From Heptranchias perlo (taxonomy: Eukaryota), in assembly GCF_035084215.1 (NCBI RefSeq), contig NC_090336.1, positions 39,060,001 to 39,124,000 on the forward strand: a stretch of 64,000 nucleotides of DNA, given 5' to 3'. The position numbers were made by a program, and so were the translations under genes. Shown one piece after another: positions 10,611 through 59,893 of this stretch. Position 1 is the stretch's first letter. Every line of letters starts with the position of its first letter. Under the pieces are notes generated by a model that saw nothing but the letters and a program-made list of their open reading frames with translations, searched no databases and had not been told where the DNA came from.

Positions 10611-11423
10611 CTTTCAAGAGAACAGCGTCCACGACACCACACAACCCTGCCACGGTAACCTCTGCAAGACATGCCAGATCATCGACACAGATACCACCAT
10701 CACACGAGAGGACACCACCCACCAGGTGCATGGTTCATACTCCTGTGACTCGGCCAACGTTGTCTACCTCATACGTTGCAGGAAAGGATGCCCCAGAGCA
10801 TGGTACATTGGCGAGACCATGCAGACGCTGCGACAACGGATGAACGGACACCGCGCAACAATCGCCAGACAGGAGGGTTCCCTCCCAGTCGGGGAACACT
10901 TCAGCAGTCAGGGACATTCATCCACCGACCTTCGGGTAAGCGTACTCCAAGGCGGCCTTCGAGACACACGACAATGCAAAATCGTCGAGCAGAAATTGAT
11001 AGCCAAGTTCCGCACCCATGAGGACGGCCTCAACCGGGATCTTGGGTTCATGTCACGCTACACGTTACCCCACCAGCGAACAAATGTTATCTGTTTTTAA
11101 TATAACGGGTCAGTTGCTGTCTTTTCTATGTTTCTACCTCTCTATCTCTGTTTTTTTTTGTTTGTTGTTTTTTTTTTGGTGATTTGTATATTCTGAGACC
11201 TTGCAGGTAACACCTGTCTGTCTGCACACTGATTGCCTTGGCAACGGGCAGTTGAAAAAACTGTCTGTAATCACCAAGCATTGTTCTGTGAATTATAAAT
11301 GCGATTTCATTTCGAGGATTTCATTTCGTTCACCTGAGGAAGGAGGAAGCCTCCGAAAGCTTGTGAATTTAAAATAAAATTGCTGGACTATAACTTGGTG
11401 TTGTAAAATTGTTTATAATTGTT
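10611..11423 (+). mobile_element. Penelope-like element 3' fragment: GIY-YIG endonuclease plus terminal repeat with hammerhead
   Basis: Translation shows C-x4-CKTC, then VVYLIRC-x2-GC...WYIGET...LRQRMNGH...VGEHF...GH...E-KLI-KF-T...GLN, typical of PLE GIY-YIG domains. Stop at 11100, then a 3' UTR with a hammerhead core. Confidence 0.92.
11329..11367 (+). ncRNA. Minimal type I hammerhead ribozyme (PLE-associated)
   Basis: ttcac-CTGAGGA-a-ggagg(aag)cctcc-GAAA-gctt-gtgaa: stem I ttcac/gtgaa, stem II ggagg/cctcc, intact core, palindromic AAGCTT in place of stem III. Confidence 0.8.
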
Positions 11424-16345: not shown

Positions 16346-16671
16346 ATCCTATAATGTAGGATTATGTCAACCAGTATTTATGAATTGGTGGCAGCACATT
16401 TTCCATTGGCTGTATTTGTTGTGCAAAATCTGTGAAGTCAGCCCCCCACCATCCAAATTTATAATTGAATTTCATAGCCTTGTACACTGAGTTCAGAAAA
16501 TATTTAAGTTTCAATGTTGATGTTTGTTGGGGTACCTCCCTGCCCTCATTCACCTCATGGTTGTTACTGAGATGCTGTTTGTACAGAATAGATGCCATAT
16601 TTGCCTATAAAACTGCATTTCAAAAGTATTGATCCCTTTGAGTTGTTTCAATGTGAAAGTAAACCACATTC

Positions 16672-17140
16672 ATTATAATCCAGCTTTAGAGAGGAAAAAA
16701 AAACACAACAACTATAGTCCAGCTTTAGAGAGAGAGAAAACCACACAAACTTATAGTCCAGCTTTAGAGAGAGAAAACTACACAAACTATAGCCCAGCTT
16801 TAGAGGGAGAGAAAACTACACAAACTATAGCCCAGCTTTAGAGAGAGAGAAAACCACACAAACTATAGCCCAGCTTTAGAGAGAGAGAAAACTACACAAA
16901 CTATAGCCCAGCTTTAGAGAGAGAGAAAACCACACAAACTATAGCCCAGGTTTAGAACTACCTCACAAACTATGCTCTGGTTTTAAAGAAAGAGAGAGAG
17001 AATTGCACTAACTATAGTCCAGCTTTAGGGAGAGAACCTCAGTGGCTATTGTCCAATTTTAGGAGGAGAGAACTGAATTAACTGCTGTCCAGCTTTATTG
17101 AGACAAGAAAACTGACACACCCTTCTCCAGTTTTAGAGAG
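16672..17140 (+). repeat. Minisatellite, ~36-40 bp unit, about 12 copies decaying toward the 3' side
   Basis: Unit 'aactatagcccagctttagagagagagaaaac(c/t)acaca'. Confidence 0.95.
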
Positions 17141-19934
17141 AATGAGAATAACCTTACTATCCTGAGCTGTCAATGCTGGATGAATCCTAGCTGTGGGATT
17201 TTCAGTTGCAAGTTGCATACCTGAGGTGTAACCTTTTACCTAAAATATAAATATGTGGCTAAGAACAACAAACTACATTTGTCACATGGGCTAGAAAGGA
17301 TGGCCAAGTGGTTTTAATATATTATCTTCTCTCCCCTTTTTTATTCTTTTTCCCTTTCTTTCTATTCTTTTTCTCTTTTACCCTATCCCTCTTCACATCC
17401 AGTCTGGCTATGAGGTGTGGAAAAGTTTTCCCCTGCCTGCTTTCATTGGAGAGTGATAGAAACAAAGAACAGGCATGGAGGCACATATATGCCAGAATTC
17501 ATAGCAGTTATGCAAGTCCTCTATTAAAACCATTGGGGCTACTTTTTATTAGACTTTTGCTACCACAATAAATGCAGTGATACCTTGCTTTCTCTCACGT
17601 TGCATTCTGCATGACCTCCCAGATTCTGCAGTTGAGGTCCAGTCTTGAGACAGGAGATCATGCAGAACTCAGGAGAGTCGTTGACTTGTTCACATATGTG
17701 CAGCTTTGGGGACAGAGAGCGTAAGCAAATCTCTTCCAGAGCACAAGGCATTTTTTTCTGTAAAATGTAGGAAAGTTTCCCTTCCATGTACAAGAGAAAG
17801 GGAAGGATATGAGGAATGTTTCAAATGTAGAATACTCTGCCAGAATAAGCAAGTAAAAAAAAGTCATTTAAAAAAAAAATATATATTTTGTTGGAAATGT
17901 TCAGATTTTATTTAATTTCCAATCTCTAAACTCAGCAGGGACCCGACATCAGCCACATGACCCATCAGCAAGTTTCTCCATTAATGTGCAATGCTGATTG
18001 ACATCAGTTCCAATTCTAATCACCAATTTGGGAAGCAGTTGGCCTGGAATTTTTCAAATTTAAATTTCCTATACCCACAGCTGAGCTTTTATAATATTTA
18101 CAGTTTTTTATTGAGTTTTCCCAAATGTTGGCATTAACAGCTGACTTAAATGAAACATCTGATTTTGAGGTGCTTTCAGCAGCATTTGACATTGTAGGGA
18201 ACTCCGTTAATCCTTGATGATCTGCCAGCATTGTGTTATTGCTAAATCAGTCAGTTTCACTCTTCTTTTGTTGCTTTTGGTAGTTGTGGATTGTCTGAGT
18301 TCAGTGAAATATTGCTTTAATAAAACAAGCAGATTTCTGGACTCTCAGTGCTGCTGTTTTCACCTGGGCCTGAGCCGATGAATTTTTCTGATTTCTTTAG
18401 TAGTTCACATTTGTTAATCTTATAACTTCGTATAATGGAAAGGAAGAGGACTGGCCAGGAAAGCAGCTCACTCCACAAGCACCAGTGTTCTAGCTATTAT
18501 ATCAACACTGGTGCTCTGTTAGATCGAGATTTTATATCTTACCCAGTGACAGATTCAAGAACAATAATAAAACAAACTGCCCTACCACCTGCCCACACTG
18601 AAGCTTATCTCTAAGGATACCATTTCTGTCTCGCATGCACATTCCATATGGGCGAGCAATTTCTTTCACATGTCTTTACTTCTGCCTTGGTACAACTCAA
18701 AAGTAAACACTCTGTCTCCCACGCAGTGATATACTAATAAGATTTTTGAACATCTCAATCAATGCAACCATTTGGATAATACATCAGCACCTGTTGTTCT
18801 TCCTGCCATCATTGCATAAAAACTGCTTTTTATTATTCCTTTTCTTTGTGCTTGAAACAATTGAGAATGACCAAAAACTTATGGTAGTGGTTTCCAGAGC
18901 ATGTGGGCCATTATGTGAACTGACCATAGGTGCAATCTAGTTGCATGAGTTCTGCCTTATTTAACAATTGTCATTTGAAGGTGTGCTTGACATGAGTGTG
19001 ATCAATTGCATATCTTACCAAAAGCAGAGAGGGGCCTGAGAGGCATCACTTTTTAAGAAGGACATAACAAGGACCCATTCAACAGCTCTAAATATCTACC
19101 CCTGTGCTATTTTGACCTATCATTTGTTCCCATGGTTATGCCGTTGATTGGTAAAATGATACTTTGAATTCCAGTATTACTGCACCATCGAATGTTGCAT
19201 TCCTCTGACAGAAGGCTCTTTATACATGATACAATCTGATCCGTGATACCTGTTGCTATTATCAGACTCAGTCATTGCAATTATACTAAACTAAAAGGTA
19301 CAAAATCAAAAAAAAATTGTGCATAAAAAATTCCCACAGCCTTTTTTCTAATTATTCATAAATATCTATATTTTTCTTTAATTTACATTTTTTCACACAC
19401 TGTCTGCCACAATTGGCTCGCCCGCTACCACATTCTACCAGAATCCTTCTATCACCCTCTGTTGTCAACATGACTGAGGCCATATCATTAATCAATCTTT
19501 GCTGGTCCGGCTAATGAAAACATAGCTAAGTTGTAAGCACTCCGAAAGCATCTTATTGTAATAAAATATGAAACTGCTTTTTCAAATAAATTAAGGTGTG
19601 ATAAAAATGAAGCCTTTTTGTCTATGATGGATTATTATTGGATTAATTCTAGCTGGTTACAGCAATATAGGGTTAAAACTGATTAATGCTATCTATTTCT
19701 GAAAGCTGCAGAAAACGAACATTACAGTCTGGTACGCCAAAGGCACTGATGTGCATGGTTGTTTGCTAGCCATTTTCCTTGGATGATAACTCATCTTGCA
19801 GATTATTCAAAGTGCTTGGAACAGATCAGTGGAGTTCTCAGGAAGAAGGCAAGCCATTCCATTCAATTACAGGACTCCTGTAAATGTCTGACCATTCATT
19901 CATTGGCAGTGCTTTGGGACAGTCAAAAAAGTAT

Positions 19935-28720: not shown

Positions 28721-30012
28721 CTTGTCTTCCTCCACCGATTGCATTGACAGTGCACCCCCCCCCCTTTAATAGGTGCAGGCTGCCTTTAAGTAGTGCTGGC
28801 CACACCCCATATTGGGCCCTCTGCTGGTGCGTGCAGGCAATCAGCAGCGCGGGTAGCACTGGCTGCACACAGAAATTGGGTAAATGACCAGGCAGCATGA
28901 ATCGCACATGCTGTCTGCATCGCAACGACCGGGCGCGGGTTAATCGCGCACTGCGACCCCCACGTCCGAATTCAAGGGTTATCGAATTTAACCCCCAATA
29001 TGTCGAAGTACTTCATTGGTATGTAAAGATTGTAAGGAACATAAAATGTGATTGTGATTCTGAGTTTGTAATCCGCTGTGATATTTAGTTCCCTTGTCCA
29101 TGGTAAAAAAAACTGGAGCATATTCCATTTATATCATGGTGTAAATGTTGTGTTGTCCCTCGAAAGCACTCACAATGCTAAGGCACATTTCTGTTGCAGA
29201 ATTGATTGATAGTTGCCACTTTGAACATCATCTATTGGAAGGTACTGACTATGGGAGAGACAGACGATGGGTTCATTAGAAAACTGCTGGAGGCTAAGAG
29301 TTCTGATCATTTTGAAGCTGTGTTTTCTAGCAAGGCTTTATTAAGCATATTACTGTCACTAAGCTGTCAAATTCTTTTACCCGAGTCACCTGTCCTACAA
29401 GGTAATGAAACTTCTGTGCCACAGTATTTGTTGCTGTATCAGTCACTTTACCTTTCACAGAACCTTGTGCTGGCTGGTGCACAGAGTATGAATAACAAAT
29501 TTTAGTAGAGGTGCAAGCAAACATTGAACTTTGTTTTATCGTCTTTTGGGGAAGGGAAGAATAATTAATAATTCAAATATGTTTTGTTAACCATAAATAA
29601 AAAATATTGAGAGAGCATATGAAACACGCAAGTTGCTATATGTTAGCTTCTATTTAAAGTTACCTAATTTAAAGTGAGGTAAAATTACTTGGAACTAGGT
29701 TGGCTTAAGACAAACGAATTGTATGGCACAAATTATGTGATTGTGCCTGTGATTGTAACCATACTGGGACTGCTGTTCTTGAAGCATTAGCCTACCTGCA
29801 CCCAAACAAATTAACATTGTACCATAATGCAAGGCTAACTTAATTACCTATTTTAGTGGTGCTTCTGCTGCATAGATGCATAGAGCAAGATATAGAGGGA
29901 GGATTTCATTAGCCATGTATAAATGTCTGGTGTACAATGCCACCATTTTATTTTTTGCATACCATGGACAACAATGTCTTTGTTGAAAAAACTGGCCACT
30001 GCTGACCAAGTT

Positions 30013-30227
30013 ACAAATGTAAGGAATCTTACAACACCAGGTTATAGTCCAACAATTTTATTTTAAAATCACAAGCTTTCGGAGATTATCCCCTTCGTCA
30101 GGTGAATCACGAAGGGGATAATCTCCGAAAGCTTGTGATTTTAAAATAAAATTGTTGGACTATAACCTGGTGTTGTAAGATTCCTTACATTTGTCCACCC
30201 CAGTCCATCACCGGCATCTCCACATCA
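30013..30227. mobile_element. PLE-derived fold-back element with hammerhead (family A, copy 1)
   Basis: Perfect 86-bp inverted arms 30013-30098 / 30109-30194, 10-nt spacer, tail ccaccccagtccatcaccggcatctccacatca, TSD tgaccaagttaca (30003-30015, 30228-30240). Confidence 0.9.
30069..30105 (-). ncRNA. Minimal hammerhead ribozyme in fold-back copy 1
   Basis: Minus strand: tcac-CTGACGA-a-gggga(taa)tctcc-GAAA-gctt-gtga; core intact. Confidence 0.75.
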
Positions 30228-31600
30228 TGACCAAGTTACAGAGAGGGTTGTAGTTAAAGCTAGCCCTCTAACAAAGAGAGGACCACCCAGGAATAAACCT
30301 TTACATTTTTAGAATGGGCCTCCTTCCGTTCCAAATGGCCCCCCTCAGTGACTAAAATGCTACTCAGGCACTCCAGTCAAATTAGGGGATGCCCCCTAAT
30401 TCAAATAACTTATTAAACCTTATGAGCCTTCCACACGTTTAATGTACAGGCTCCCAGCACAAGGACCGCATTGAGGCTCTAGGTGAATCGGGCATAGAGT
30501 ATGCCTCAGTGCCCAATAATACATGGTGCCTGTCATCGTATTATCCACCGCTATTTATACTGACTAAATAAGGAACAAAATGGGACTTTGGAACTAATTG
30601 CTTCTATTAGAATTTTTCCCAGAATTTGTTAACATCAGTATTGCCTGAAAATGAACTTGAATCTCGTCATCAGGATTTTTTTCCCCTTATGTAGGCCAGG
30701 AATACTAACACCAATTGTAGCAGTGCTACCACTGAGATCAGATAACCCAGCACAAGCTGGGGACTGAACATGGGACTATCCCAGTCTATATAGCTTACTT
30801 CCACACTAGTCAGTTCACTTACCAATGTAGCTAGTGGAAAAACACAGAGCTGTTTTTTGATAAATGGTTTGCATGATATCAATGGTAATCACTTAGCAAC
30901 TACAACAACTTCCAACATGAATAGTACACAAGTATATTGTCATTGTGCAGCACGCAGACTAAAAATGACAATGGAGCAACATTCAAAAACCTGCAGAGAT
31001 AAATCACATGACATTCCAAAACATGTCTGTCATAGCCTCTGAATACATCCACAGTACCAAGTCTACTCAAGATTTACAAAAATACTGAATAACAACCGCT
31101 GTATAAACTTTATTTAATTGCAGAAACCACTAAAAACAGTGTAAATGGATTGTACATTAGGAAACAATGGTTTAGAAAATAAACCACCTATTACGGCTGG
31201 CATAATTAAATTGCCACTTTTGGAATATACAGCCTTCATCATTCAGTCGTTGCATGATTTGCATCCTCTACCGAATTTACTAAGAAAGACTTATTAAAAA
31301 GTTTTGATTTGATAAAGAATATTTTTTTCTATGCTAGGTCGCATAAGAAGCTGACACTAAGCCGAGTCAAGAATATCATGGAGCAAAAAGAAAAAATAGT
31401 TCATGGTGGAGTTTAGCACTGCTAAATGAATATTCAAAACCACATTGAATATTACATTTTATATTTATAGCAGATTTTACCAGGAACAGCCAGGAGGAAT
31501 GAACATAAATTACAATGTGTTCAATCTGCAATTCTTTACAGCTGATGGACTTGGCATTTTTTTTAAGTTACAATTAAAAACACTAACAATTTGAGCTCTA

Positions 31601-32597: not shown

Positions 32598-35310
32598 GAT
32601 AAGAACATAAGAAATAGGAGCAGGAGTAGGCCAATTGGCCCCTCGAGCCTGCTCCTAACCTCAAATCTAAAGAACACAAGAAGTAGGAGGAGGACCCGGC
32701 CACTCAGCCCCTAGGCCCGCTCCGTCACCCACAGGGCATTGACCGATCCGAACTCAGCTTCATGTCCAATTTCCTGCCTGCTCCCCGTTACCCCTAATTC
32801 CCTTTACTTCGAGGAAACTGTCTATTTCTGTTTTAAATTTATTTAATGATGTAGCTTCCACAGCTTCCTGGGGCAGCAAATTCCACAGACCTACTACCCT
32901 CTGAGTGAAGAAGTTTCTCCTCATCTCAGTTTTGAAAGAGCAGCCCCTTATTCTAAGATTATGCCCCCTAGTTCTAGTTTCACCCATCCTTGGGAACATC
33001 CTTACCGCATCCACCCGATCAAGCCCCTTCACAATCTTATATGTTTCAATAAGATCGCCTCTCATTCTTCTGAACTCCAATGAGTAGAGTCCCAATCTAC
33101 TCAATCTCTCCTCATCCCCGAGATTAACCGAGTGAACCTTTGTACTGCCTCGAGAGCAAATATGTCTTTTCTTAAGTATGGACACCAAAACTGTATGCAG
33201 TATTCCAGGTGCAGTCTCACCAATACCTTATATAACTGCAGCAATACCTCCCTGTTTTTATATTCTATCCCCCAGCAATAAAAGCCAACATTCCATTGTC
33301 CGCCTTGATCACCTGCTGCACCTGCATACTAACGTTTTGATTTTCTTGCACTAGGACCCCCAGATCCCTTTGTACTGCAGTACTTTCCAGTTTCTCACCA
33401 TTAAGATAATAACTTGCTCTCTGATTTTTCCTGCCAAAGTGCATAACCTCACATTTTCCAATATTGTATTGCATCTGCCAAATCTCTGCCCACTCACCCA
33501 GCCTGTCTATATCCCCTTGTAGGTTTTTTATGTCCTCCTCACTCTCCACTTTCCCTCCCATCTTTGTATCAGTGGAATATATTTTTTTTGAATGTTGTAA
33601 AATAACTCTTTAAATGAACACAACTGCTCATGTATCATCTTACCCTTTAATCTATTTTCCCAGTCCACTTTAATCAATTCCGCTCTCATACCATCATAGT
33701 CTCCTTTATTCAAGCTCAGTACGCTTGTTTGAGAACCAACCTTCTCACCCTCTAATTGGATATGGAATTTAACCAGGTTATGGTCACTCATTCCAAGGGG
33801 ATCCTTAACTAGGACATTATTAATTAATCCTGGCTCATTACACAGGACCAGGTCCAAGGTTGCTTGCCCCCTTGTAGGATCAGTTACATACTGCTCAAGA
33901 AATCCATCTCTAATACACTCAATAAACTCTTCCTCAAGGCTGCCCTGCCCAATTTGATTTGTCCAGTTAATATGATAGTTAAAATCCCCCATAATTATAG
34001 CTGTTCCCTTATTACATGCCCCGACTATTTCCTGATTAATACTTCTTCCAGCAGAGTTGCAACTATTAGGAGGCCTAAATACTACGTCCACTAGTGTTTT
34101 TTTTCCCCTTATTATTCCTTATCTCTACCCAAACTCTTTCATTATCCTGATCCTTTGTCCCAATATCATGTCTCTGTATTACAGTGATTCCTTCCCTTAT
34201 TAACATAGCCACCCCACCTCCCCTTCCTTCATGCCTGTCCTTCCTGATTGTTAAATACCCTGGCATATTTAATTCCCAGTCGTTGTCACCCTGCAGCCAT
34301 GTTTCTGTAATGGCCACACGATCATACCCATACGTAGTTATTTGTGCCGTTAACTCGTCCATTTTGTTATGAATGCTACGTGCATTCAGATAAAGAACTT
34401 TCAAATATGTTTTGTGACACTTAGTTCCTGCTTTTTCCTTTTTTAACACTTTACCTTTTACTCCATACCTTCTGTCCTTTCCTGACACGCTTTCCTCTGT
34501 CACCTTGCTCAGGTTCCCAACCCCCTGCCACTTTAGTTTAAACCCAGTGATACAGAAGCACAGTACATTAGTGATTCAGCACCCTGTCGTGGACTAAGAT
34601 TTAGGCTCATGCAAACAATTGACACAGATTTCTGATGATAACTATGGTGCTAGGGGTAGGGTCCACGCAAAGGAAACTTAACCATAGGGAGGGACGATTA
34701 GAGAAAGTGTCATCCTGCATTGCTTTTCCCCAGCTCTTGGCCTGTAATCAGCTGGGTTACAAAGTGTCACTAGCAAACACTCCTCCTAGGACAGCGGTCC
34801 CGGCCCTGCCCAGGTGCAGACCATCCGGTTTGTACTGGTCCCACCTCCCCCAGAACCGGTTCCAATGCCCCAGGAATTTGAATCCCTCCTCCTTGCACCA
34901 CTCCTCTAGCCACATATTCATTTGAAATATCCTCCTATTTCTACTCTGACTAGCACGTGGCACTGGTAGCAATCCTGAGATTGCTACCTTTGAGGTCCTA
35001 TTTTTCAATTTACCTCCTAACTCCCTATATTCTGCTTTGAGGACTTCATTCCCTTTTTTACCTATATCGTTGGTGCCTACATGCACCACGACAACTGGCT
35101 GTTCACCCTCCCCCTCCAAAATGTTCTGTAGCCACTCTGAGACGTCCTTGACCCTTGCACCAGGGAGGCAACACACCATCCTGGAGTCTCGGTTGCGGCC
35201 GCAGAAACGCCTGTCTATTCCCCTTACAATTGAGTCCCCTATCACTATAGCTCTTCCACTTTTTTTCCTCCCAGCCTGTGCAGCAGAGCCACCCATGGTG
35301 CCAGGAAGTT
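32598..35310 (-). mobile_element. CR1/HER1 LINE with ORF1 esterase, endonuclease and RT C-terminus; internally deleted
   Basis: ORF1 SGNH esterase (IVIGDSIVRG, CLPGARV, VHVGTND, DGLHL; 34772-35296), endonuclease (YLNARSI, AITETWL, IMGDFN, SDHN) and RT C-terminus. The RT core is missing at a junction near 33571. Confidence 0.93.
34547..34771 (+). repeat. 225-bp copy of 36139-36363 inserted in CR1 ORF1
   Basis: Appears identical to 36139-36363 (gtgatacagaagc...aaagtgtcact); ORFs 34635 and 36227 share the same translation. Confidence 0.92.
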
Positions 35311-36138: not shown

Positions 36139-36363
36139 GTGATACAGAAGCACAGTACATTAGTGATTCAGCACCCTGTCGTGGACTAAGATTTAGGCTC
36201 ATGCAAACAATTGACACAGATTTCTGATGATAACTATGGTGCTAGGGGTAGGGTCCACGCAAAGGAAACTTAACCATAGGGAGGGACGATTAGAGAAAGT
36301 GTCATCCTGCATTGCTTTTCCCCAGCTCTTGGCCTGTAATCAGCTGGGTTACAAAGTGTCACT
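36139..36363 (+). repeat. Likely donor of the 225-bp duplication
   Basis: Same sequence as 34547-34771, here embedded in unique-looking DNA. Confidence 0.9.
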
Positions 36364-53095: not shown

Positions 53096-53697
53096 AAAAA
53101 ACATAAGACAGAAGAACATAAGAAATAAGAGCAGGAGTAGGCCATCTGGCCCCCCGAGCCTGCTCCGCGATTCAATAAGGTCATGGCTGATCTTCTACCT
53201 CAACACCATTTTCCTGCACCATCCCCATATCCCTCGATGCCTTTAATATCTAGAAATCTATCGATCTCTGTTTTGAATGTACTCAATCACTGAGCCTCCA
53301 CAGCCCTCTGGGGTAGAGAATTCCAAAGATTCACCACTCTCTGAGTGAAGAAGTTTCTCCTCAGCTCAGTCCTCAATGGCCTACCCCCTATTCTGAGACT
53401 GTGACCCCTGGTTCTAGACTCCCTAGCTAGAGGAAACATCCTCCCTGCAACTATCCTGTTGAACCCTGTAAGAATTTTGTATGTTTCAATGAGGTCACCT
53501 CTCGTTCTTCTAAACTCTAAAGAATACAGGCCTATTCCACTCAATCTCTCCTCATACAACAGTCGCGCCATCCCAGGAATCAGTCTGGTGAACCTTTGTT
53601 GCACTCCCTCTATGGCAAGTACATCCTTTCTTAGGAATGGAGACCAAAATTGTACACAATACTCCAGGTGCGGTCTCACCAAGGCCCTATATAATTG

Positions 53698-53910
53698 CAA
53701 ATGTAAGGAATCTTACAACACCAGGTTATAGTCCAACAGTTTTATTTGAAAATCACAAGCTTTCGGAGGCTTTCTCCTTAGTCAGGTGAATGAAGGAGAA
53801 AGCCTCCGAATCTTGTGATTTTCAAATAAAACTGTTGGGCTATAACCTGGTGTTGTAAGATTCCTTACATTTGTATTCCCCAGTCCATCACCGGCATCTC
53901 CACATCATGG
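53698..53910. mobile_element. PLE-derived fold-back element (family A, copy 2)
   Basis: Arms 53698-53779 / 53793-53873 with few mismatches, same tail, TSD ctatataattgca (53687-53699, 53911-53923). The minus-strand core is mutated (CTGACTA). Confidence 0.9.
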
Positions 53911-54067
53911 CTATATAATTGCAGTAAAACATATTTACTCCTGTACTCACATCCTCTTGGAATAATGGCCAACATACCATTTGCCTTCCTAATTGCTTGC
54001 TGCACCTGCATGTTAGCTTTCAGTGACTCATGTACATGGACACCCAGGTCCCTTTGAACATCAACAT

Positions 54068-55543: not shown

Positions 55544-57141
55544 ATCTCTCACCATTTAAAATATACTCTGCATTTCTGTTTTTCCTACCAAAGTGGATGA
55601 CTTCACATTTTTCCACATTATATTCCATCTGCCACATTCTTGCCCATTTACTTAGCCTGTCTTTATCCCCTTGAAGCCTCTTAATATCCCCTTGAAGTGT
55701 AATAATTGACGGAACAAATGGGTATAATCTCGTGACGTGATTGCAAGGTGACCAAGGTTGGGAGCTAAATATTCAGGGTTATTTAACATTTCGGAAGGAT
55801 AGGAAAAAAGGTAAAGGTGGTGGGGTAGCTCTGTTAATAAAGGATGAAATTGGTAAAATAGTGAGAAATGATCTTGGCTCAGAAGATCAAGATGTCGAAT
55901 CAATTTGGGTGGAGGTAAGAAATAGCAATGGAAAGAAATCACTGGTGGGAGTAGTATATAGGCCCCCTAACAGTAGCTACACTGTAGGGCAAAATATAAA
56001 TCAGGAAATAAGGGAGGCTTGTAAAAAAGGTAATGCAATAATCATGGGCGATTTTAACTTTCACATAGATTGGACAAATCAAATTGGTAAAAATAGCCAT
56101 GAGGAGGAGTTCATAGAGTGTTTAGGGACTGTTTCTTAGACCAATACGTCGGAGAAACAACCAGGGAACAGGCCATTTTGGATCTGGTAATGGGTAACGA
56201 AACAGGATTAATTAATGATCTCAAAGTAAAGGATCCCTTGGGAAGCAGTAATCATAACATGATGAATTTCACATCCAGTTTGAGAGCGAGGATCTTGGGT
56301 CTGAAACTACTGTATTAAACTTAAATAAGGTCAATTATAAAGGAATGAGGGCGGAATTGGCTACGGTAGACTGAGTAAAAAGATTAGATGGTATGATGGT
56401 GGATAAGCAGTGGCAAACATTTAAAAAGATATTTTATGACTCGCAACAAAAATATATCCCTGTGAGGAGGAAAGACTCTACAAAAAGGATGAACCAACCA
56501 TGGCTAACTAAGGAAGTCAAGGATGGTATCAGGTTAAAAGAAAAAGCATACAACATGGAAAAGATTACTGGTAAGACCGAAGATTGGGAAAACTTTAAAA
56601 ACCAGCAAAGAATGACTGAAAGAATACTAAAGAGGGAGAAAATAAATTATGAGAGTAAACCAGCAAGAAATATAAAAACTGACAGTAAAAACTTCTACAA
56701 GTACATAAAAAGGAAGTGGGTAGCTAAAGTAAACATTGGTCCCTTAGAGGATGAGACTGGGGAAATAATAATGGAAAACAAGGAAATGGCAGATGAATTG
56801 AACAGATATTTTGTATCTGTCTTCACAGTAGAAGACACTAATAATATACCAATAATAGTAGAAAATCAAGGGGCAAAGGGGAGGGAGGAACTAAAAACAA
56901 TCACTATCACTAGAGAAAAAGTACTAGGTAAACTAATGGGCCTAAAGGCTGACAAGTCCTCTGGACCTGATGGCTTGCATCCGAGGGTCTTAAAGGAAGT
57001 GGCTACAGAGATAGTGGATGCATTGGTTGTAATCTTCCAGAATTCACTGGATTCTGGAAAGGTCCCAGCGGATTGGAAAACCGCAAACGTAACACCCCTA
57101 TTCAAGAAGAGAGTGAGACAGAAAGCAGGTAACTATAGACC

Positions 57142-57349
57142 ATTGTAAACAATTTTACAACACCAAGTTATAGTCCAGCAATTTTATTTTTAATTCACAA
57201 GCTTTCGGAGGCTACCTCCTTCTTCACCTGAGGAAGGAGGTAGCCTCCGAAAGCTTGTGAATTAAAAATAAAATTGCTGGACTATAACTTGGTGTTGTAA
57301 AATTGTTTACAATTGTCAACCCCAGTCCATCACCGGCATCTCCACATCA
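57142..57349. mobile_element. PLE-derived fold-back element (family A, copy 3)
   Basis: Perfect 81-bp arms 57142-57222 / 57233-57313, 10-nt spacer, same tail, TSD taactatagacca (57130-57142, 57350-57362), which duplicates the CR1 NYRP codons. Confidence 0.92.
57223..57261 (+). ncRNA. Minimal hammerhead ribozyme in fold-back copy 3
   Basis: ttcac-CTGAGGA-a-ggagg(tag)cctcc-GAAA-gctt-gtgaa; differs from 11329-11367 by one loop base. Confidence 0.8.
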
Positions 57350-57877
57350 TAACTATAGACCAGTTAGCCTAACATCTGTCATTGGGAAAATGCTAGAATC
57401 CATTATTAAGAAAGTGGTAGCAGGACATTTGGAGACTCATAACACAATCAAGGAGAGTCAACATGGTTTTATGAAGGGGAAATCATGTCTGACAAATTTA
57501 TTAGAGTTCTTTGAGGAAGTAACAGGCAGGGTGGATAAAGGGGAACCAATGGATGCAGTATATTTGGATTTCCGAAAGGCATTCGATAAGGTGCCACATA
57601 AAAGGTTACTGCACAAGATAAGAGCTCATGGTGTTGGGGGTAATATACTGGCATGGATAGAGGATTGGCTAACTAACAGAAAACAAAGAGTCGGGATAAA
57701 AGGGTCATTTTCAAAATGGCAATCTGTAACTAGTGGGGTGCCGCAGGGATCAGTGCTGGGACCTCAACTATTTACAATATATATCAATGACTTGGATGAA
57801 GGAACAGAGTGTCTTGTGGCCAAATTTGCTGCTGATACAAAGATAGATGGAAAAGCAAGTTGCGATGAGGATACAAA

Positions 57878-59893
57878 GGGCCCGATATTACCAGGGTGGC
57901 GGGGGGTAGATTGGGCGCGTGGGTAACGCGCCCAGTGAAATCGGGGTGCTCCGCACACAATCGCAGCTTGATTGAAGGTGCTTACCTTTTGCTTCCGGGT
58001 TTCGCGCTGGAAAGCTGCGCAGCGGGCGGAGTGCGCAGGCGCATCATAGGCTGTCAGCTGGAGGAGCCCTATTTAAAGGGGCAGTCCTCCACTGACTGAT
58101 GCTGCAGAAAATAGGCAAAATTACAGCATGGAGCACCCCAGGGGGAAGGTTGCTCCCAAGTTTAATGATGCCTCACTCCAGGTCTTATTGGATGGGGTGA
58201 GGAGGAGGGGGAGGACAGAGATCTTCCCCCTGGCAGGCGGGAGGAAGTGGCCTGCCTCTGCCACCAAGAAGGCCTGGCTCGAGGTGGCAGAGGAGGTCAC
58301 CTGCACCACCAACATATCGCCCACCTGAATACAGTGCAGGAGGCGGTTCAATGACCTAAGTAGGTCAGCCGAAGTGAGTATACTTACTCATTCCCCTACA
58401 CTCCGTCTGCGACATCACCGCCCCCATCCCACATCTACTTCTGCACTGCCAACACTACTCTATCACGTCACTCCTCACACCCACTCAAACCTCATCCTCA
58501 TCTTACCTGCACTTATTCACCTCGCCAGTACTCATCCCACCACTACCACTCAACCCAATCCTCATATAATCTCATGGCTCTATCTCATACTCACCCTCTC
58601 ATGCATCTCTTTCACGGTCACCCTCACTCAACCTGCCACTACCTGTGCTGCAGCCACAGGGCATGCATCACATATGTGCAGTAGGAAGTGTAAGGCAAAT
58701 GTGTCGTGAGCATGAAGGGGATGCACAAGAGTGTTTCAGGGTTTGTCATGGTTTTTACTTATATTTAATTTCTGATCAACTCACATTACATATTATATTG
58801 GCACCACTACTGCCACGTCTTTGCGAATCTTGTCTGGTTTGTGCAATAATGCCCTTTCCTGAGGATCACTATGAAGACCCACAACTGATGCCACCCATTG
58901 TGTCACTGCAGAGTGGGTGTAGGTGTATTTGCAGGGCTCTTTTGTGCAGACGGCGATGTCCCCGGTGGCACCCTGGAAGGATGCGGAGGAGAGGTTGTTG
59001 AGGGCAGTGGTGACTTTGACAGCGACAGGTAAGAAGATGGTGCTCGGGCCAGCCGGGAGCAGCTTGGCATGAAGGAGGCTGCAGATGTCCACAATTACAT
59101 GTCGAGTGACTCTGAGCCTCCGTGTGCACTGCTGCTCAGAGAGGTCCAGGAAGCTGAGCCTCGGTCTGTAGACCCTGTGCCGAGGGTAGTGGCTTCTGCG
59201 ACGCATCTCTCTCTGCCGTTGCCCTCCCTCCTGGTGTTCAGGTGGATGTGTCACAGCACTGTGTTGTGGAGCTCCACGTGTCAGAGGTGGACGGCGAGGC
59301 TGGTGATGCTGTTCGTCCTCCGAGGAGGTCATGACTGCAGCCATGGCGGCCCCCATCCGGAAGATGTACATCTGAGGGGGTCTGCAAGGTAGGTACATGT
59401 GTCTGGACACCGGGATAAGTGTGCAAGTTGGTGAATTTTATTGTTCGGAGGAGGGTGGTGGAGGCCAAACATTGTCCAAAGTGACAGAGTGGCCTCCTGC
59501 AATGAGTGAGGGTCTCCCCTCCCCCCTTCCCCCCCCCCCCCCCCCCCCGCCCTGCTCCCTCACCTGTCAAATGGACCTTTGCAGCTGCCACAGGCTGATG
59601 GCTGCAACATGTCCATTTCAACTGGGAGTGTTCCCCCCAGTACGGGAAACAGTCCCAGTTGACTTGAAAATCCCACCCCTCCTAAAATATCAGGTCTGTA
59701 AATGACCTTAAGTACGTAGTTTTAATTGCCGGCGGGAGTCCCACATGCTGGGGCTGCGTGTGCATGTAAGCGCGTCACTGAGGAACCCGGAAATGGGGCG
59801 GGTTGGAGCCGGGCTCCGGACCCGCCCCAGGAATCCCCGATTTTCGGAGCCCCCCGCCACAAAAACACCTGCTCAGGTGCGAAAATCGACCCC
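57878..59893. mobile_element. Internally deleted PIF/Harbinger transposon
   Basis: TIRs gggcccgatatt / aaaatcgacccc, TSD AAA, inside CR1 RT. Myb/SANT exon 1 on plus 58128-58373 (APKFNDASL...AWLEVAEEV...QCRRRFNDL|GTGAGT). Transposase N-terminus on minus ~59345-58950 (RVYRPRLSFLDLSEQQC, LPVAVKVTTALN). Confidence 0.88.

Follow-up and report, generated by a model that had tools for sequence, protein, structure and literature searches.

Within the window, the stretch of 64,000 nucleotides of Heptranchias perlo DNA that was analyzed, the insertion at 57143-57349 is a head-to-head pLTR (end repeat) stub of an endonuclease-bearing Penelope-like element (PLE). This 207-bp insertion is flanked by a 13-bp target duplication; one of its arms carries a minimal hammerhead ribozyme (HHR), and only one side has a tail (Table 1). 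It forms a near-perfect inverted repeat at 57138-57317, with arms at 57138-57226 and 57229-57317 that are 98% complementary and a folding z of -26.5, none of 200 shuffled sequences being equally stable. The surrounding DNA is itself a non-LTR retrotransposon, whose reverse transcriptase (RT) frame is ended by a GC-rich stretch at 57861-58700 that bears a TATA-like motif of its own and, after it, what appears to be a short coding region, and that looks like another insertion. Further copies of the element lie elsewhere in the window, which also holds a 38-bp tandem array at 16655-17148 (about seven copies plus decayed ones), in the unit of which a short stretch looks like PLE body sequence read on the reverse strand, a likeness that may be due to chance. 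Two identical 225-nt direct repeats (34547-34771 and 36139-36363), located 1.6 kb apart, may represent the two termini of a recent insertion or else a local duplication.

Table 1. Position of the insertion (copy 3), its parts, its host and its relatives in the window.
Feature	Position	Strand	Remarks
Fourth copy, longer direct tail-less pLTR	11100..11422	+	TATA-like box at 11294, HHR core at 11334; 5' limit provisional
Copy 1, similar hairpin with 13-bp duplications	30003..30240	+	Complete HHR in the tail-less arm only (minus strand)
Copy 2, similar hairpin	53687..53923	+	Core of the longer (minus-strand) arm is CTGACTA, G8 lost
Host non-LTR retrotransposon RT frame	56691..57878	+	Split by the insertion; frames rejoin across the duplication; Pfam RVT_1 E=1.3e-24
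Left target-site duplication, 13 bp	57130..57142	+	Identical 13-mer at 57350
Inverted tail-less pLTR arm	57143..57222	-	Runs from the tail base into the HHR core; lacks the stem I 5' strand and C3
Direct 5'-truncated pLTR arm	57223..57349	+	Begins at HHR stem I, ~12 nt past the predicted transcription start; lacks the TATA box
Minimal type I hammerhead	57223..57261	+	Predicted; layout as described in part in PMC4209133
HHR stem I	57223-57227/57257-57261	+	
HHR core CTGAGGA	57228-57234	+	
HHR stem II	57236-57248	+	
HHR GAAA	57249-57252	+	
Palindromic AAGCTT	57251-57256	+	Predicted cleavage after 57256
AATAAA, candidate polyadenylation signal	57267..57272	+	Kept across subfamilies
PLE tail, 37 nt	57313..57349	+	Between two putative RT initiation sites; stops just 5' of the element's ORF start
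Right target-site duplication, 13 bp	57350..57362	+	

The family is large: in the 3.25-Gb genome, a 31-nt tail motif has 28,449 exact matches and a 23-nt body motif has 98,955 of them; few copies occurred in twenty 10-kb stretches. Its coding part was found at locus L200, where a 902-amino-acid ORF, open in three loci, begins at the end of the tail and matches RVT_1 (E=3.3e-10) and GIY-YIG (E=4.4e-4, at 20.9 bits slightly below the cut-off of 22.6). This gives the layout of an endonuclease-positive (EN+) PLE, namely, a single ORF, with RT and with a GIY-YIG domain at its C terminus, directly after the pLTR and tail, of which the window copy retains the pLTR stub only; partially tandem pLTRs, the TATA box, HHR and tail recurring 3086 bp apart around the L200 ORF; and a 37-nt tail at one end accompanied by an inverted 5'-truncated copy. 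Intact ORFs were present at L200:1024-3780, L201:2088-4826 and L202:1802-4558, those of L200 and L201 being 98% identical, and the family is therefore probably still active. A search of the PDB returned nothing informative. MITEs and DNA transposons carry terminal inverted repeats at both ends and have one fixed structure common to their copies; this class was rejected, as the repeat here does not include the tail, which sits beyond it on one side, and the centers vary from copy to copy. A non-LTR retrozyme was also rejected, since that class, as defined in the part of 10.64898/2026.07.22.740005 used here, needs tandem direct repeats each with an HHR and the present copies are dispersed single or head-to-head insertions. 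The endonuclease is preceded by C-X4-C-X2-C, which fits the CX2-5CxxC linker of the Neptune or Nematis clade, as that motif is defined in the relevant passage of PMC8557442.

The hammerhead was identified by its letters, its stems and the description of minimal type I hammerheads of metazoan PLEs given in parts of PMC4209133, and together with the RT and GIY-YIG domains of the ORF it bears out an earlier note on this DNA, which had recognized a PLE with a hammerhead from the letters. Copies 1 and 3 have the core CUGANGA...GAAA, helices I and II and the palindromic 15.2-16.2 positions. The same note had assigned one complete core to each hairpin, which is right for copy 3 (plus strand only) and copy 1 (minus strand only) and wrong for copy 2, neither arm of which is complete because G8 is lost. 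No hammerhead was matched in Rfam at the gathering threshold, below which only generic hairpin families appeared. Across 16 sequences, 90.6% of the stem cells were paired, versus 22 to 52% when the alignment was slid; a single pair showed two-sided change, and the covariation score was reached by 184 of 500 shuffles. The ribozyme shares with those of PMC4209133 a short helix I, an extra base before helix II and the palindromic 15.2-16.2, and like them it is predicted to act as a dimer, cleavage being a prediction here; in the sections of that paper used here, minimal monomers did not cleave, the Schistosoma monomer giving no product and its dimers little. Cofolding of the dimer predicts other dimer pairings. 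In subfamily C, which is large and has intact ORFs, stem I has drifted to G-U pairs.

To describe the hairpins at the scale of the family, 129 tail-bearing copies were picked by their tail alone, regardless of their center (98 distinct copies among the first 100 tail-motif matches and 31 from 30 further loci). A hairpin was defined by an inverted arm within 100 nt, a condition that retained 65 copies; another 12 with distant or complex inverted arms, one of them a tandem duplicate, were set aside. Thirty loci obtained with an HHR-spanning query are biased, and 29 of these were omitted from the 65-hairpin counts and used in the comparison of arms; the remaining one turned up again in the tail-selected sample. 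TAACT after the tail, considered as a subfamily mark in the biased loci, was rejected, as it stemmed from the query's own target site. In a further sample, which overlaps partly with the tail-selected one, arms of subfamilies A, B and C were drawn with patterns wholly downstream of C3 of the hammerhead, yielding 196 arms: 79 run through a TATA-like box, 17 stop within the core, and the other 100 are short.

The earlier note had held that the inversion point always falls at the 5' edge of the hammerhead and leaves one complete ribozyme per hairpin. A single complete ribozyme was found in 26 of the 65 hairpins, with both arms complete in 25 and neither in 14. The clustering itself was upheld, the longer arm ending between -20 and 0 from C3 in 43/65, and "always" was not, both ends lying between -10 and +8 in 12/65; mapped across many copies, ends span from beyond -60 to +86 from C3, yet are clustered. 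The remark that the inverted arm stops just short of the tail proved correct, as it starts at the tail base, 30 to 38 nt before the tail's end, in 61 of 65 hairpins.

The two arms are not equivalent. Of 82 inverted pairs whose selection did not depend on the tail, 81 have exactly one tail; the sole pair with tail sequence on both arms (L352) has one partial tail. In the 65 hairpins, the longer arm is the tail-less one in 35 and the tail-bearing one in 15, the two being equal in 15 (p=0.007), and where the difference exceeds 20 nt the tail-less arm is the longer in 15 cases versus 2. A snap-back of the kind proposed in the earlier note, if of the tail-primed cDNA, cannot give a longer tail-less arm, since a fold-back copy cannot outreach its template. 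An exact target duplication adjoins the inverted arm in 44/65 hairpins, with a mode of 12 bp and A as the last base in 28 of the 44. At their centers, 12 hairpins have a loop of 0 to 2 nt, 17 have at least five extra letters, 29 have an element-only loop of at least 3 nt and seven are unanchored; a 3-bp microhomology junction at -4/+1 recurs. Filler between the arms was seen at L024, L041, L060 and L120, and at L024 and L060 it is visibly copied from flanking target DNA.

A different form of self-priming would have RT run off at the transcription start and the second arm arise by snap-back of one, mostly tail-less, cDNA, the tail coming from a short cDNA of the other target strand. The element-only loops at 29 of 65 centers fit such an origin, as do the arms, which are usually identical, including in 6 of the 14 hairpins with arms unlike those of any other copy in the sample. 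Self-priming is also the proposal published for junction palindromes in the part of PMC3846280 that deals with them. We nevertheless consider this route unlikely, as the loops of 0 to 2 nt at 12 centers are too tight to fold back, 17 centers hold filler, either arm can be the longer one (35 versus 15), and in one hairpin (L052) the arms differ at four sites, each nearer to another copy, possibly reflecting an insertion from two templates.

Long palindromes are unstable, and the centers could in principle have been remodelled after insertion by deletion, conversion or inversion of the spacer, in which case they would hold no record of the insertion itself. A few hairpins, such as L108, do have arms closer to one another than to any other copy. 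Over 56 hairpins, the biased set included, we counted 42 arm-to-arm differences, similar to the 47 and 37 differences of the respective arms from their nearest copies; arms being overall no more alike than nearest copies, later homogenization looks minor. Furthermore, random inversion from a start in which all tail arms are longer would give at most 50%, against tail-less arms longer in 35 of the 50 unequal cases, and non-palindromic solo stubs share the end point of the hairpins described below. Remodelling is accordingly the explanation to which we give the least credence.

The position of the arm ends was then related to the promoter-like part of the element. Long copies carry a TATA-like box 36 to 47 nt upstream of C3, depending on the subfamily, and the stubs lack it. 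The peak of 5' ends, measured from C3, lies at -17/-16 in subfamily A (TATA-to-C3 spacing of 46), at -10 in C (spacing of 40) and at -10 to -7 in B (spacing of 37 to 38), ends within -18 to -14 being found in 11/21 arms of A and 3/37 of B (p=0.0003). Among the 100 short arms, the best 3-nt window held 35 ends in TATA coordinates (+29 to +31) versus 28 in HHR coordinates, shuffled spacings giving a mean of 22 (permutation p=0.0002), and TATA+29 to +33 held 40 ends against five at +24 to +28. Agreement was weaker in the tail-selected sample of 129 copies (26 versus 22, p=0.007). Stubs that are not hairpins also peak at TATA+29 to +33 (9/30), and tail-less solo copies occur, some of which end at TATA+31 to +33. 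In the hit lists, A and B had the predicted difference in the distance between arms (p=0.0017), with medians of 35 (n=23) and 16 (n=15), respectively; the median of C, at 40 (n=15), is not intermediate. Because the subfamilies differ in TATA-to-ribozyme spacing, the promoter can be separated from the ribozyme as a cause.

Transcription starts about 30 nt past a TATA box (the -30 spacing rule). Given this textbook spacing, ends some 30 nt after the TATA-like box suggest that RT ran off at the 5' end of an RNA. Of the short arms, 18 of 42 in C and 13 of 37 in B end upstream of TATA+29, which argues against a sharp wall, and the 79 of 196 arms that run through the box require longer, read-through RNAs. 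In subfamily C, some ends cluster at a local palindrome near TATA+22-23. Homopolymer extension at the arm end was noticed and set aside, the subfamily sample giving it no clear support. A start set by a TATA box is also counted against by the Penelope of D. virilis, which according to the part of PMC2377424 concerned with its promoter has an internal promoter without TATA.

The proximity of ends to the ribozyme had led the earlier note to propose that the hammerhead makes RT stall or snap back. The longer arms ending at most 20 nt upstream of C3, the predicted stability of stems I and II in a single arm and the recurrent -4/+1 junction are all in keeping with this idea. Nevertheless, RT moving 3' to 5' meets the 3' foot of the structure first, where only 4 of 157 ends were found; the ends instead lie 5' of the structure, that is, after RT has passed it, their peak shifts with the TATA spacing, and 25 of 65 hairpins hold two ribozymes. 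Stalling at the hammerhead is thus largely refuted and now very improbable. HHR-cleaved RNA as the template was likewise rejected, as it predicts ends at the cleavage site (+29 from C3), where 1 of 157 was found. A pause of RT on a longer RNA, caused by a weak stem that lies shortly upstream of the HHR and has its 3' foot by chance near TATA+30, is scarcely better placed. Subfamily C does have a 6-bp stem ending at +32 (local -6.1 kcal/mol), and weaker stems are predicted nearby in the other subfamilies, but these stems, at -0.7 to -6.1 kcal/mol, are unlike between subfamilies, and RT passes the stronger hammerhead (about -11).

We therefore favor, as the probable explanation, that the head-to-head stub is made by RT copying, twice over, a short 5' stretch of the element's RNA and running off where transcription starts, some 30 nt past the TATA-like box and 7 to 17 nt before the HHR, and that the two target-strand-primed cDNAs are joined; as part of this joint explanation, the hammerhead would probably be a bystander in hairpin formation. 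The position of the box 36 to 47 nt before C3, with the pile-up of ends 29 to 31 nt after it, would mark the RNA 5' end. Target duplications of about 12 bp suggest a staggered cut of the two strands by the endonuclease, from which two 3' ends would result. With one arm beginning at the end of the tail and the other at its base, RT would be primed by each 3' end at an internal site, one of the two that bound the tail, probably on one RNA. The tail-side cDNA would displace the other and often stop early; that tails occur so strictly one per pair and that the tail arm tends to be the shorter both suggest such strand displacement on one RNA. Finally, the two same-sense cDNA ends would be trimmed and joined by microhomology end-joining or with filler, leaving zero, one or two whole ribozymes. 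Priming on both strands followed by end-joining is favored by the longer tail-less arms, the solo tail-less copies, the duplications and the centers, along with the behavior of the anole PLE enzyme, which in the experiments of PMC11167929 considered here cuts and extends both strands from two RT start sites that bound the tail, HHR cleavage not being needed.

The head-to-head pLTR architecture is already published, and the element itself is ordinary. L1 twin priming, in which both target strands prime on the RNA, leaves the 5' part inverted, with microhomology at the junction, the inverted part being upstream sequence without duplication. In contrast, both cDNAs would here copy the same stretch, giving a palindrome. 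The general scheme of inverted pLTRs in EN+ PLEs is given in a passage of PMC8557442, and passages of PMC3846280 describe inverted tail-less 5' pLTRs with junction palindromes and a TATA-like motif, and propose self-priming on an antisense template. Pen2a of Adineta vaga, as presented there, shares with the present family the head-to-head 5'-truncated pLTR, a 30- to 40-bp tail at one end, a short target duplication, a palindromic junction and the TATA-like motif; the present family differs in its arms of ~130 nt, its tens of thousands of copies and its ends mapped to TATA+29 to +31, and those passages, in explaining Pen2a by self-priming, draw no link between ends and start site. Poseidon of Anolis (PAc), as covered by the relevant sections of PMC11167929, would share the use of two tail-bounding RT start sites. 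It belongs to Penelope/Poseidon and its ORF begins inside the HHR, unlike the present ORF, which has a Cys-rich linker and begins where the tail ends; in vitro, its start site is alike on both strands, with no strand difference, whereas one tail was found here in 81/82 pairs, and the same sections do not address inverted arms. Among the papers listed in our literature search, which covered open-access main texts, none connects the ends of PLE copies with the start site or appeals to twin priming in PLEs; subscription papers and supplements (e.g., Fig. S2 of PMC11167929) may bear on the matter.

The earlier note had further suggested that a read-through transcript would sequester the ribozyme, acting as an off-switch or feeding Dicer or ADAR. 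Such a transcript is predicted to present the antisense arm first, with the ribozyme buried, and the pairing probability predicted for stem I indeed falls from 0.64-0.96 in a single arm to 0.0 in the hairpin. This burial follows from any head-to-head layout, be it with two, one or no ribozymes; a role as an off-switch or in Dicer or ADAR pathways gains no support, and no sign of selection for it was seen. Rotifers are known to have antisense small RNAs directed at PLEs (PMC3846280, in part), and hairpins such as these could contribute to similar RNAs.

The origin of inverted pLTRs and of one-sided tails in PLEs is an open question in the relevant parts of PMC3846280, PMC8557442 and PMC11167929, to which the present stubs bring a quantified, testable clue to PLE integration. 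A large family with intact ORFs also offers sharp predictions for the existing in vitro system. More tentatively, and with rather less confidence than we place in the run-off itself, the PLE tail may be the footprint of one enzyme dimer that holds both cut strands on a single RNA 37 nt apart, with both cDNAs racing to the capped 5' end, the outer displacing the inner, so that each insertion would be a pair of strong-stop cDNAs. If true, the transcription start of the element could be read from the tens of thousands of stubs, and the whole class would have an explanation for its inverted pLTR and its one-sided tail.
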